This document shows positions 1-4,587 of a stretch of 28,719 nucleotides of DNA, piece after piece (positions within the stretch are counted from its first letter, which is position 1; every line of letters begins with the position of its first letter). The DNA comes from a virus. Its lineage: Duplodnaviria > Caudoviricetes. The notes beneath the pieces are model-generated. The model was not told the DNA's origin. It ran no database searches and saw only the letters and a program-made list of their open reading frames with translations. The translations under genes were made by a program, and so were the position numbers. The DNA lies in IMG/VR virus record IMGVR_UViG_3300031802_000010, positions 1 to 28,719 of that record; one strand, given 5' to 3'.

Positions 1-267
1 TGGAGGATAACCTGGCAAGAACCCACTTCAGTAATGAACATGGTTTTTGGGGATTTTTCCTTTCCGGGTAGGATTATATTTCAAAGAAAGAAGACATTCT
101 CGACTACTAACTACGATGAACTTATTAATAAATTAGATGAATTGCAGGATCTTCAAGATTGTAGTAAACCATCAATGAAACCCATTCTACTAGGGGTTGA
201 AAAAACTATAATCGAAAAAGGTACATATACTAATGCTGACCTAAATTCTAACGCTCCATTTGGTTAA
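1..267 (+). CDS. hypothetical phage protein, 5'-partial
   Basis: The frame is open from base 1 (TGG AGG ATA ACC TGG CAA...) into ORF 34..267, so the gene may start outside the window. No motif recognised. Confidence 0.6.
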   Translation, partial: WRITWQEPTSVMNMVFGDFSFPGRIIFQRKKTFSTTNYDELINKLDELQDLQDCSKPSMKPILLGVEKTIIEKGTYTNADLNSNAPFG

Positions 268-374
268 ACCATTCGTGTAACTTCGTGCGGTACAATGCCG
301 AACAGTTTATTCACCACACCAGGGAATATTCTATTATGAAGAGTCATGCCACTAATAATTTGAAAGGATTCGCA

Positions 375-644
375 ATGCTAGATATACATCCAAATGAACC
401 TACTAGGGAGTTTCGTCTACAGGGGACCGTAAAAGATTATTTCCATGAAACCTACAAACCATATAAACTTCATGTTTATGGTCCAATAGACAACGGTTTT
501 GGGAAAGTCAAGGAAATAAAAGTCCAACAGACTATAGATGTTCTAGATTTACTCGATTTAATTTCAGGAACTGATGACTATTGGCTAGTAAAAATAATCG
601 ATTACTACGGGACGTTTAAATGCATTGAAAAAGGAGCTAAGTAA
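375..644 (+). CDS. hypothetical phage protein (~89 aa)
   Basis: In frame with ORF 285..644. ATG at 375 follows an SD-like AAAGGA, so it is a better start than the GTG at 285. Confidence 0.65.
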   Translation: MLDIHPNEPTREFRLQGTVKDYFHETYKPYKLHVYGPIDNGFGKVKEIKVQQTIDVLDLLDLISGTDDYWLVKIIDYYGTFKCIEKGAK

Positions 645-727
645 TTCATGCCACGAAAAAAGCAGTTTTTAAAAGTATGAAAAAGAAAGCGAAATACAAT
701 CCGTCAAAAATCTTTCGATTTTATCTC

Positions 728-755
728 TTGACTTTTTCGATTTCAGGTATATAAT
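728..755 (+). promoter_or_regulatory. sigma70-type promoter
   Basis: TTGACT (728-733), 16-nt spacer, TATAAT (750-755); an alternative -10 TAATAT at 752-757 gives an 18-nt spacer. AT-rich upstream DNA; intergenic, ahead of the replication operon. Confidence 0.75.
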
Positions 756-758
756 ATC

Positions 759-890
759 CCTGAGACTTGAGAAAAACTTTTTATAGATTCATGCCACAAC
801 AAATTCGATCTATCCCGTACAGTCAAGTCAGTCTGTAGTATGCAGTGGCATGAGTACTATATGACTGGCTTGGCTTTTTTAGTCTCTAGG
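759..890 (+). ncRNA. candidate structured leader RNA / sRNA
   Basis: Begins near the predicted +1. Pairings read by hand: 762-767 with 881-886, 821-840 with 855-875, and 789-797 with 845-853. Not a family I recognise. Confidence 0.45.
821..880 (+). terminator. intrinsic terminator-like hairpin in the helicase leader
   Basis: AGTCAAGTCAGTC pairs with GACTGGCTTGGCT (13 bp, 2 G.U) and TGTAGTA with TACTATA (7 bp, 1 G.U). 14-nt loop; T-run 875-880. Confidence 0.65.
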
Positions 891-905
891 CAGATTGGAT
901 ATTTT

Positions 906-2528
906 ATGATAAAGTTTTACAAGAAAGTAAACTGTCCTGAATGCTCTGCTTCTGTTAATACCATAAACGGAGAGCGCTACCCAGTTATAGGTCATATCAA
1001 TGGTTGTTCGTTAGCTGGTCAAAAAGTCGAAACAAAAGGGCGTATTGACAGCCTCTACGATTCGACTATAGATAGTGGAGGGATTTACCCTGACGGCACC
1101 AGAATACCTTATAGGTATCAGACAAAAGGAATTGAATTTGCTAAAGGAAAAGATTCTTTTGCACTATTCTGGCAAATGAGACTTGGCAAAACTCTTACGA
1201 CAATTAAAATCGGTAAAGAAAAAAATTGGGAAAAGGTACTAATAGTTTGCCCTAAATCAGTTATTAACACCTGGATGAGAGAGCTTAAGCTGGAAAAACA
1301 GGCTGTACTTCGACTAACTACCGTAAGTCTTAAACACACAGCAGTTAAAAGGTCTCTTAAGTTCATGCCGGGGTGGTTTGTCACCAATTATGAAACACTT
1401 ATAAAAGAAAACTTAGCTGAATTAGCTGACTGGGATGCACTGATTTTAGATGAATCCGAAAAGATAAAAGACCCAACAACCAAAATTAGTAGGGAATTAG
1501 CTGGAGGTTACTTCAAAAAAATAATTGAACAACCCGATAGAGATGACAAAGAAGTTAAAATTTATCGGGATCGATGGAGAAAAGTAAAAAATAAAGTTTG
1601 TTTAACAGGTACACCAGCACCAGAAAATTTATTAAACTATTTCCAGCAACTCAAATTTCTATTCGGTAGTTTTGCTGGAACAGATAATTACCAAACATTC
1701 AAATCTAAATACTTCACAATGATTGGGCCAAATAAATTTACAGTATCCCCGCATGTATCCCAGTTTTTATCAGCTACATTGGCTGAATATTGTTTTGTTC
1801 TTCAAAGGGATCAAGTAGGAATTGGTTCAACTAAGGTATTTGAAGAACGAGAAACTGAACTATCTTCAGAATACCGTGAAGTTTACGATAGTTTTGAAAG
1901 AGATTGGATAACTGAAAATGGTGAACTAAGTGTTTTATGTGCTATTGCAGCATATACCCATCTACATCAACTATCTGGAGGTTACCACCATAAAATGGTC
2001 AAAAAAGGGATTACTAGTCCCCATAAACTCAATGAACTAAAGCAAATCCTAAAGAATGATCTTCGAGGTGAACGAGTATTAATCTGGTTTCGCTTTAAAG
2101 AGGAAATAAAGCAAGTTACTAAGGTATTACCAGTAGATTCATGGGCAATATGGTCTGGAGATACCAAAACTGATCAGCGTTTAGACCTGGAAGAACAATT
2201 TGCATGGAGAAACCGTTCTAAGCCATTAAATGGTAAAGTAAGAAAACAGTACCTTTTATGCCAGATAAAATCTGCTTGTCATGGACTAGACTTTGCAGGA
2301 GCTGATCAATCTATCTACTTCAGTAATGAACCTGGTTCTAAATGGCGACAACAGTCAGAAGATAGGTTAATTCATCCTGAAAAAGAAGTACCACTACTTT
2401 ATATTGATCTAGTAGCTGAGAATACTATCTGCCCATCTATTCTTGCGGCTTTAAAAGGTAAAATAGAAGATCAACAGACGTTTTTAATGAAAATTCATGA
2501 AGATATGAAAGAAAGGCACGGAGTATGA
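906..2528 (+). CDS. SNF2-family (SF2) helicase/translocase with N-terminal Cys/His Zn-binding motif
   Basis: Motifs PYRYQ, MRLGKT (I), LIVCPKSV (Ia), LILDESE (II), LTGTP (III), HGLDF (V), QSEDR (VI); N-terminal CPEC...HINGC. The track start (840) lies inside the hairpin, so the in-frame ATG at 906 is preferred. Confidence 0.9.
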   Translation: MIKFYKKVNCPECSASVNTINGERYPVIGHINGCSLAGQKVETKGRIDSLYDSTIDSGGIYPDGTRIPYRYQTKGIEFAKGKDSFALFWQMRLGKTLTTIKIGKEKNWEKVLIVCPKSVINTWMRELKLEKQAVLRLTTVSLKHTAVKRSLKFMPGWFVTNYETLIKENLAELADWDALILDESEKIKDPTTKISRELAGGYFKKIIEQPDRDDKEVKIYRDRWRKVKNKVCLTGTPAPENLLNYFQQLKFLFGSFAGTDNYQTFKSKYFTMIGPNKFTVSPHVSQFLSATLAEYCFVLQRDQVGIGSTKVFEERETELSSEYREVYDSFERDWITENGELSVLCAIAAYTHLHQLSGGYHHKMVKKGITSPHKLNELKQILKNDLRGERVLIWFRFKEEIKQVTKVLPVDSWAIWSGDTKTDQRLDLEEQFAWRNRSKPLNGKVRKQYLLCQIKSACHGLDFAGADQSIYFSNEPGSKWRQQSEDRLIHPEKEVPLLYIDLVAENTICPSILAALKGKIEDQQTFLMKIHEDMKERHGV

Positions 2529-2764
2529 AAGGATTCTTAGCTGAACAACAGCCAAGAGCTAAAAGTATTGGCGAATACTCAGATTTGAAAGTAATGCGTT
2601 CCTCTGCTGGGTACTACATAGGCACTCTATTTACTCACAGCAATAAAAGTAGTTCTCCAGGACTGGAAGAACCAGGTACACGAGAATCTCAGTATTTTCC
2701 AACTGAAGTACATGCACTACAAGCATTAATTGACGATAATTGGCAACAAAGGCTAGAACCATAA
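2525..2764 (+). CDS. conserved-looking hypothetical phage protein
   Basis: ATGA overlap with the helicase stop. The pattern LxVxxSxAGYYIG...PxxRESxY...AL...W resembles a recurrent small phage/mobile-element protein of unknown function (from memory). Confidence 0.8.
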   Translation: MKGFLAEQQPRAKSIGEYSDLKVMRSSAGYYIGTLFTHSNKSSSPGLEEPGTRESQYFPTEVHALQALIDDNWQQRLEP

Positions 2765-2765
2765 G

Positions 2766-3266
2766 ATGACTAGAATAAACCTTCCCCCTATTCCAGAAAA
2801 TGCTTTCATTACCTGTGATCCTGGTAGTGGGGGGACTGGTTTAGCTTTATTTTTTCCAGAACATCCATTTCCTATGGATACTAAAGTAATTAAATGCCCA
2901 ATAAATGATTGGGAAATAAAACAAAGAATGATTTTATCAACCACTGATGCATATTTAGTTGATATGTATGAAAGAGGTTGTAGAAAACTATTTATCGAAT
3001 TACCACAGTATATGAACTCTGTAAAAGGAGAGATAGCTGCTAAATCTAATGCGTTAGGTAAGTTACTAATGGTATATGGAGGGATTAAAGCTAATGCAGA
3101 ATTGCGCGGGTATACTACAAAACCAATCATTATAGGTCATTGGAAAGGTCAATTAGACAAACATAAAGTAAATATTAGGATAAAGAAAATCATTGGTGCT
3201 GAATTTGAAGATCATATTGCCGATGCAGTTGGAATGGGTCTGTATCTAAAAGGAAAATTCAAATGA
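2766..3266 (+). CDS. RuvC-like Holliday junction resolvase
   Basis: RNase H-fold catalytic pattern: ITCDPGSGGTGLA, FIELP, WKGQLDK, DHIADAVG. Confidence 0.85.
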   Translation: MTRINLPPIPENAFITCDPGSGGTGLALFFPEHPFPMDTKVIKCPINDWEIKQRMILSTTDAYLVDMYERGCRKLFIELPQYMNSVKGEIAAKSNALGKLLMVYGGIKANAELRGYTTKPIIIGHWKGQLDKHKVNIRIKKIIGAEFEDHIADAVGMGLYLKGKFK

Positions 3267-3526: not shown

Positions 3527-3537
3527 GAGAGATCACC

Positions 3538-4587
3538 ATGCCACAAGACTTCTACAAAATAGAGACTCTACCTCTTAATAAAAAAGTAGAAAACCAACAC
3601 TCTGTTTGGAACTACTATCGCGATGGAGTATCTCAATCATTCTCTAAAAAATTTAGAGAATGTAAACTCCAAACTAAACTTGAGTATGTAGACGGCTGGA
3701 CCAATAAATATGACAAAATTTGGTTCCGCTATGGAAAGCTAGTTCATTACCTGCTAGAACAGCAGTATCTAGGTTTCAATATCGATAGTGAAGAAACTGC
3801 ATTTAGTATGGCAACAACATTTGCTAATAAATACAGATGGTTTCTTCCGCAATTACCAGAAATAATTAAAGAAGAAAATACTTTTCTTGTAGCTTTAGCT
3901 GCCCATATTCTTCCAGTATACGTTAAATGGAGCATTATGGACGTTAAACTAACGAAAACTCTTGCTGTTGAAAAAGAGTACCGTATGCCATGCCAAGATA
4001 CCTTTGCTAGAGGAATAGTCGATAGAGTTTACCGGGATATGAACGGTTTACTTTGTTTAAAAGACTATAAAACAACAGCTAGAGTAATACGAGAAGCTGA
4101 ATTTTACGAGACATATAAATTAGATACTCAAACTTACTTATACTACCTCTTAGTTTTTAATGAATTCCAGGAAATGCCCCATAAAATGGAATTTGAGTTT
4201 ATTAGAACGCCTAAACATACTCTAGATCGAAAAAAAGATAACGTTTCATTTGAGGATTTCTTGAGCAAAGCTTGTGCTGACTTCGATCAAAGTCCGTCAA
4301 AATACCTAGGAAAAATAGAAATAAAACTAACAGCTAGTGAACTAACAAAATGGTATAATGAGCAATGGCTAGGCATTATAGACGAGATTAAATACTGGTG
4401 GGATGGGGGATGTAAACCATACCCATATAACGAACAGTCATTAAGGACGTCTTATAATAGTCGTTGCGAGATGTTTTATTTTATTACTGAAGGAAGAGAA
4501 GATAATTTATATAAACGAACCACTGCATTCACACAATACAAGGATGCCAACAATGACAAAAACTTGGTTACCGACTTCGATATCTGA
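3538..4587 (+). CDS. PD-(D/E)XK (RecB/Cas4-like) exonuclease
   Basis: SxS...C start, GKLVHYLLE, VEKEY, RGIVDRV, DYKT and QxxxY; adjacent to a Sak4-like ATPase. Confidence 0.88.
   Translation: MPQDFYKIETLPLNKKVENQHSVWNYYRDGVSQSFSKKFRECKLQTKLEYVDGWTNKYDKIWFRYGKLVHYLLEQQYLGFNIDSEETAFSMATTFANKYRWFLPQLPEIIKEENTFLVALAAHILPVYVKWSIMDVKLTKTLAVEKEYRMPCQDTFARGIVDRVYRDMNGLLCLKDYKTTARVIREAEFYETYKLDTQTYLYYLLVFNEFQEMPHKMEFEFIRTPKHTLDRKKDNVSFEDFLSKACADFDQSPSKYLGKIEIKLTASELTKWYNEQWLGIIDEIKYWWDGGCKPYPYNEQSLRTSYNSRCEMFYFITEGREDNLYKRTTAFTQYKDANNDKNLVTDFDI

Follow-up and report, generated by a model that had tools for sequence, protein, structure and literature searches.

A candidate antisense leader RNA of a tailed phage, with a terminator-like hairpin whose loop is complementary to a tag on early start codons

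The leader at positions 762-880, ahead of the replication genes of a tailed phage, is probably an uncatalogued multi-target antisense leader RNA and a variation on phage antisense control, as judged from the layout of its sequence. The element formed by this leader and its hairpin at 821-875 is real and non-random, and the hairpin loop mirrors an oriented tag that spans AUG codons in the early arm of the genome. On balance, we consider it probable that the terminated RNA of about 119 nt masks the tagged AUGs in trans and that the internal copy of the tag adds autoregulation. Positions without a locus name refer to the window, the whole stretch of DNA analysed (28,719 nt).

Materials and Methods

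Window positions equal positions in the genome record G001 minus 25,997. Natural variants were taken from seven metagenome runs, and the metagenome scan for relatives covered 25 of 64 parts. A looser first detector of loop-antisense enrichment fired at many GC-rich loci, and a stricter detector was used for the ranking, which comprised loci of at least 8 kb with duplicate G001 copies left out. For the Cluster K mycobacteriophages, 14 of 182 records plus the right end of TM4 were examined, giving 15 loci.

Results

The stretch belongs to a tailed phage whose plus strand carries helicase, resolvase, exonuclease, Sak4, polymerase and primase genes and whose minus strand carries those for tail, head and terminase. 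The stretch and G001 are 99.9% identical, and the 189-bp overlap between the ends of that record indicates a genome that is circularly complete at about 48.5 kb. Near-identical DNA is present in marine and seawater metagenomes; no RNA dataset with the phage was listed among 24 runs, which has no bearing on expression. Neither an integrase nor a repressor was recognised among the phage proteins scanned, and no antirepressor family was found among the early proteins scanned with Pfam and PHROGs. The first gene downstream of the leader (Table 1) starts at 906, since its homologues begin just before the CPxC motif. ATG 840 was considered as the helicase start and rejected; this ATG is lost in all three covering runs and the homologues start at the equivalent of 906, so that translation from 840, which the original prediction named as evidence against itself, is unlikely. 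Within the helicase, a 15-nt in-frame insertion at 1071 occurs in runs X4 and X8 and matches P0001.

Several further features of the phage were recorded. Two adjacent early genes (L010:229-504 and 540-992) are partial duplicates with 87-90% identity over 42-87-nt blocks. Near the divergence of the two gene arms, TGTCA/TGACA repeats and TAATATAGG units in tandem precede a long A-run (L011:18100-18240 and L012:30-130) and may mark an origin or packaging region. A GC-rich, highly structured leader of about 250 nt (L011:18345-18620, -88.7 kcal/mol) separates the first early gene from a promoter-like site; it ends in a U-run adjoining the SD and has no Rfam match (best E 0.78). In addition, tandem strong hairpins (-32.1 and -31.8) occupy the gap 5' of the 212-aa gene (L010:3124-3250) and are possible RNase III sites or a second small RNA.

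The anatomy of the leader agreed closely with the original prediction. The 20-bp terminator-like stem at 821-840/855-875 with three G·U pairs (823/873, 828/868 and 835/860) and a U-run is present, with six T at 875-880, and a 21st pair, U841·G854, can be added. The loop at 845-853, GTGGCATGA, is, as had been claimed, an exact complement of 789-797 that is extendable via 783-788/854-860, and the uORF, which contains no amino-acid run, does end in the 5' arm of the hairpin. The predicted transcription start follows a promoter-like site that is the top site both in window 1-3000 and in L010 1-6100; promoter-like sites overall are at chance level (8 against 9.5). The region 755-895 folds at -43.1 kcal/mol (z = -3.37), with 0 of 200 shuffles as good, and the hairpin is one of the four most stable 60-nt folds in the early arm. 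Its energy of -29.4 kcal/mol as RNA compared with -12.2 as DNA agrees with the earlier argument that the G·U pairs point to an RNA rather than a DNA structure. A stem of 21 bp with a loop of about 12 nt and a U6 tract is an atypical intrinsic terminator, and a terminator scanner whose rule admits loops of 3-8 only made no call at 821-875. The family had not been recognised earlier, and Rfam 15 likewise gave no match at gathering score in the window or in G001 (best E = 1.2 in 600-1000); covariance-model searches for c4 (RF01695) and c4-a1b1 gave no match in the window, in 600-1000 or in G001.

Table 1. Features of the leader, the tagged sites and the Cluster K counterpart (window coordinates unless a locus is named)
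Feature	Position	Strand	Remarks
Sigma70-type promoter TTGACT-16-TATAAT	728..755	+	score 11/12; predicted +1 near 762; predicted function
Predicted leader/small RNA, ~119 nt	762..880	+	from +1 to end of U-run; no Rfam match
Internal copy of target tag, TCATGCCAC	789..797	+	spans uORF AUG; pairing extendable to 783
uORF, 15 aa, MPQQIRSIPYSQVSL	791..838	+	predicted ORF; stop codon in hairpin 5' arm; weak SD
Hairpin	821..875	+	21 bp, 821-841/854-875; U862 bulged; four G·U; then U-run
Loop seed GUGGCAUGA	845..853	+	sole minus-strand tag copy in genome
U6 tract and AGUCUC	875..886	+	AGUCUC (881-886) can pair with 762-767 after read-through
SNF2-type helicase	906..2528	+	first gene 3' of leader; start without tag (duplex -3.4 kcal/mol)
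Tag	344..352	+	AUG of 5-codon ORF 346-363; ORF stop abuts SD of gene starting at 375
Tag	646..654	+	AUG of short basic ORF 648-680 (10 aa); strong SD
Tag CCATGCCAC	3536..3544	+	start codon 3538 of PD-(D/E)xK-type exonuclease
Tag	L010 1042	+	AUG 1044 opens 47-aa ORF overlapping start of next gene
Tag	L010 2791	+	AUG 2793 opens 105-aa gene
Bulged eighth site	L010 3463	+	opens 212-aa gene; best plus-strand loop duplex in genome (-19.4)
Tag	L010 4344	+	AUG 4346 opens 206-aa gene
Anti-SAS hairpin	L126:31845-31910 (Anaya JF704106, ~59,844-59,909); also L127, L128, L130, L132		in ~300-nt late-promoter leader

Folding of successively longer transcripts qualified the proposed switch. While the nascent RNA ends at 851-869, its best predicted fold contains the pairing 783-797/845-860 (-14.8 to -24.2); once the transcript reaches 872, the hairpin prevails (-26 to -32). 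In the full RNA, the hairpin is the more stable of the two by about 7 kcal/mol, and the pairing has a probability of 0 when nested folds only are counted. The antiterminator suggested earlier is thus plausible in the nascent RNA and loses to the hairpin thereafter. The suggested closing helix 762-767/881-886 does pair in the fold, but only after read-through, and its extension of GAGAAA over the U-run is hit by the natural variant A770C, which breaks one pair. The loop is predicted to be unpaired at 845-850 and 853 (0.86-1.0), with 851-852 weakly paired, so the leader has the exposed loop seed, complementary to several initiation regions, that characterizes trans base-pairing small RNAs.

The complement of the loop is a strongly over-represented word. 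In the window, the 9-mer of the internal site has four exact matches against 0.10 expected, with 344 and 646 beside 789, and an 8/9 match at 3536. The core 8-mer CATGCCAC has seven plus-strand copies and one minus-strand copy in G001, and the minus-strand copy is the hairpin loop. None of the other strand-specific 8-mers of the genome, 54,164 in total, is as over-represented (7 versus 0.42 expected, P = 3e-7; full Bonferroni correction brings this to about 0.02), and the seven plus-strand copies are confined to a 7.6-kb stretch of the early arm. When 343 terminator-like hairpins from 74 loci were compared, the hairpin at 821-875 came first for loop-antisense enrichment (7.6e-10); the runner-up, in L033 (3e-8), mirrors the ordinary SD of its phage. 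That hairpin (L033:1684-1706) has a loop mirroring the AAGGGGTG SD common to 12 genes, either by chance or as an analogous anti-SD RNA.

Three of the seven tags lie at gene-like starts, while the remaining early-arm ATGs include 16 such starts among 391 (Fisher P = 0.003); the tag itself includes ATG, so its position on AUG is partly built in. The three tagged gene starts are those of the 105-aa, 206-aa and exonuclease genes, and the remaining four, including uORF 791, open short ORFs of 5-47 codons. The SD is in the top 4-14% at four of the seven sites and weak at three, and when the bulged site is included, five of eight sites have SD-like spacing to the AUG that the tag overlaps. The three Met-Pro starts of the late arm all lack the tag. 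Predicted accessibility is poor at four of the seven sites (P unpaired 0.001-0.07), and the flanks of the tags are no better complementary to the hairpin than background (P = 0.18; 0.33 without the internal site). The 212-aa protein has no homologue other than itself. Four exonuclease homologues at 45-48% identity include two with a Met-Pro start, and their third residues (Asn, Tyr) are incompatible with the full tag. In ORF 648-680, the stop at 678-680 is lost in all three covering runs, and the window frame then extends to 27 codons ending in the promoter -35 box. A 6-nt partial tag lies between the SD and the likely AUG of Sak4 (4544-4553, duplex -8.9) and is probably not a target.

Natural variation bears on the pairing at two positions. 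T841C, found in all three covering runs (X4, X8 and X16), replaces U·G by C-G at the top of the stem, and C652T, in two of three runs (X4 and X8; not X5), replaces G-C by G·U against loop G847. Both changes are consistent with RNA pairing, but they are single events in strains of about 98% identity and do not amount to covariation. The 40 variants listed include no change in 845-853, 789-797 or 344-352; none was listed at the L010 2791 tag in two covering contigs at about 6% divergence, which is uninformative at that divergence. Within the parts covered, scans with the helicase, polymerase, exonuclease and capsid for diverged relatives with DNA context gave this phage or loci of at most 35% identity, and homologues at 45-58% are known as proteins only. 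The helicases of GenBank phages are distant, all below 60% and 25-27% among the 20 matches listed. A tag-gap-mirror pattern was found at nine loci among viral contigs, of which one (L001) is this phage and the other eight have one tag each and were treated as chance; a 17-letter loop pattern gave six loci, one being this phage and five having no same-strand tag.

A similar layout was found in the Cluster K mycobacteriophages. There, the SAS are oriented 13-mers that mark where non-structural genes begin, one copy being reversed in K1 phages (PMC3203893), and the late transcription start has been placed between Adephagia genes 92 and 93 (PMC11373665). In Anaya (28,000-60,835), we counted 16 forward SAS copies and one reversed copy, the latter forming the apical loop of a long hairpin in the same late-start intergenic gap, which is conserved in 182 phage records. 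The anti-SAS core is unpaired (0.91-0.99) in a hairpin loop at five of the 15 loci examined, namely in Anaya and four other Anayavirus phages; among these five loci, chosen for having the loop, two of 20 stem pairs show a two-sided change. The loop is absent in the other ten, of which four carry variant loops rich in C/U and five carry loops that are shortened or unrelated. Ekdilam, Bryler and Marshawn keep SAS unchanged despite their differing loops, and no co-variation of loop and SAS was seen in the loci examined. The mirror-loop layout therefore recurs in an unrelated lineage, but SAS is not dependent on the loop across the cluster. Both systems have an asymmetric oriented tag at gene starts and one reversed copy in a hairpin loop of a leader; SAS differs in being 13 bp including the SD, whereas the tag here is 8-9 nt including AUG, and in having its mirror loop at just five of the 15 loci. 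The surrounding region (L126:31740-32070 and homologues, alignment A4) contains several hairpins and an invariant TGGCTGGTCACC block in all 14 aligned phages.

Discussion

The promoter-like site, the hairpin with its U-run, the complementarity of loop and tags, and the strand bias and position of the tags are all seen in the sequence, and we infer from them a mechanism of three steps, comprising termination, accumulation, repression and feedback. First, most transcripts from the promoter at 728-755 would end at 875-880, and the resulting RNA would build up as a stable hairpin, possibly after RNase III trimming of the 21-bp stem. Second, the exposed loop would nucleate on the tags at L010 1042, 2791, 3463 (bulged) and 4344 and at window 344, 646 and 3536, and the pairing would block ribosome loading and repress the tagged starts, so that early genes would be turned down as the replication operon is turned on. 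The flanks pair no better than chance, so trans duplexes would be only 8-12 bp long, and their formation would depend on a chaperone or on abundant RNA. Third, and least certain, the nascent pairing 783-797/845-860, or a ribosome at the uORF stop covering the 5' arm, might allow read-through into the helicase. Mature RNA bound to 789-797 in trans may block both the pairing and the ribosome route and lead to termination; such P4 CI-like feedback, the weakest part of the scheme, would limit replication-gene expression.

Of the alternatives, the most credible, still an unlikely one, is that the element acts in cis only and gates the helicase operon as a pseudoknot/antiterminator or as an attenuator coupled to the uORF, with the other tags serving, for example, a T4 RegA-type RNA-binding repressor. 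The internal site does make the longest pairing of the tag sites with the hairpin (-22.2) and the best nascent fold up to 869, the uORF stop lies inside the stem, and RegA is described as binding about 30 translation initiation regions overlapping AUG (PMC3014915). However, this account requires one 8-mer to serve two functions that are unrelated, the alternative fold is the less stable in the full RNA, and the SD of the uORF is weak. The original prediction had offered two versions, a switchable leader gating the helicase operon and a released RNA of about 120 nt. As to the former, the structured terminator-ended leader and an energetically plausible cis switch through 783-797 stand, but the loop complement also lies at six further AUGs and a bulged one, and a purely cis attenuator therefore leaves most of the signal unexplained. 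The released small RNA fits better, except that its likely targets are early-gene starts and not read-through alone.

It is also improbable, in our estimate, that a phage repressor recognises the tag as DNA, as an asymmetric stoperator- or operator-like site oriented with transcription at gene starts; the hairpin would then be an ordinary terminator whose loop chances on a reversed site, and 789/845 an inverted double operator just 3' of the promoter. Stoperators are bound by the phage repressor, and Cluster A mycobacteriophages have such DNA sites as strand-oriented, non-palindromic repeats at gene boundaries. PMC3203893 names these stoperators. In favour of this view, two copies of the tag are within 100 bp of the promoter, and the flanks are without extra RNA complementarity. 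On the other hand, the lone reversed copy falls exactly in the loop of one of the most stable early-arm folds, and the departures from consensus, a one-base bulge and a C to T change opposite G, suit RNA pairing. Furthermore, no repressor or HTH family was found among 20 (Pfam) or 15 (PHROGs) early proteins, most of which are unannotated.

We hold it rather doubtful that pairing in trans has an outcome other than an initiation block, either RNase III/RNase E-type cleavage of early messages or the use of early mRNAs as sponges that titrate the loop and set read-through. The four tags whose ORFs are tiny and offer no evident target product for repression would suit this view, as would the 21-bp stem, which has the length of an RNase III substrate, but neither a sponge nor a cleavage site needs the SD-like spacing at five of eight sites. 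A plain terminator combined with Met-Pro-starting proteins and chance is disfavoured and very improbable: Met-Pro starts do occur in both genome arms and in two of four exonuclease homologues, but it fails on the tags at non-gene AUGs, the absence of tags at late Met-Pro starts, the first rank of the 8-mer and the single mirror copy in the loop.

The leader RNA acting in trans, as favoured here, would work like several known phage RNAs, yet by our comparison it appears to belong to none of their families. The CI RNA of satellite phage P4 derives from the replication-operon leader and pairs with seqA and seqC in its own transcript, resulting in premature termination (PMC4825925). Here, too, a leader RNA is complementary to its own transcript 5' of replication genes (789-797 with 845-853, ahead of the helicase). 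In contrast, CI as described arises by processing within the transcript and lies between its two targets, whereas the seed here is the loop of a terminator hairpin and its AUG targets comprise an internal one and six or seven at a distance, the nearest downstream tag being 2.7 kb off at 3536, and there is no Rfam or sequence match. The C4 antisense RNA acts through the initiation region of the small ORF icd, is processed by RNase P and has its targets in the icd-ant antirepressor operon. C4 of P1/P7 is a trans-acting RNA that represses phage protein synthesis (PMC8546580) and corresponds to RF01695 (PMC2864571). The proposed RNA would share this trans action against phage protein synthesis; it differs in lacking a c4 Rfam match, in forming a single hairpin instead of the c4 fold and in having targets over 7.6 kb and several transcription units instead of one operon, and the genes downstream encode a helicase, resolvase, exonuclease and Sak4, with no antirepressor or integrase recognised. 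The Gifsy-1 prophage encodes IsrK, a short terminated leader RNA whose target in trans is the long read-through version of itself, at a small ORF (PMC4825925); a comparable arrangement is proposed here. Unlike the present seed, which covers AUG, probably represses and has many outside targets, IsrK is described as activating orf45 translation by refolding. Finally, the T4 RegA and RegB proteins shut down early messages phage-wide at translation initiation regions (PMC3014915), an outcome that the RNA proposed here would share; RegA, as described, is a protein with AU-rich sites, no shared exact motif and no complementary RNA. In the sections consulted, a 2025 review of phage small RNAs (PMC12197685) names no phage RNA that targets numerous start codons of the genome encoding it. 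In the literature covered, which took in few subscription papers and not the original studies of P4 and P1, an anti-start-codon multi-target leader design was not found described.

The phage antisense regulators CI, C4, Sar, OOP, aQ and IsrK, as far as the sources consulted describe them, each address one operon or gene, and early-message shut-down at start codons throughout a phage is known from proteins, T4 RegA and RegB. If the proposal is true, an RNA with an 8-nt tag over start codons would be a different way of timing infection. More tentatively, and with less confidence than in trans masking itself, we suggest an RNA-only phage switch, in which the terminated leader of the next-stage operon, with its anti-start-codon loop, would silence the earlier tagged regulon and feed back on its own read-through. 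The same design, independently arisen, would then explain the SAS of Cluster K1 mycobacteriophages, with their late leader and anti-SAS loop. The SAS partner was left as "either RNA or protein" in 2011 (PMC3203893), and the role of SAS was still called unknown in 2024 (PMC11373665). The parallel would make this question testable in a culturable phage, and the anti-start-codon RNA idea itself is testable without the uncultured phage, by means of cloned parts and compensatory mutations.
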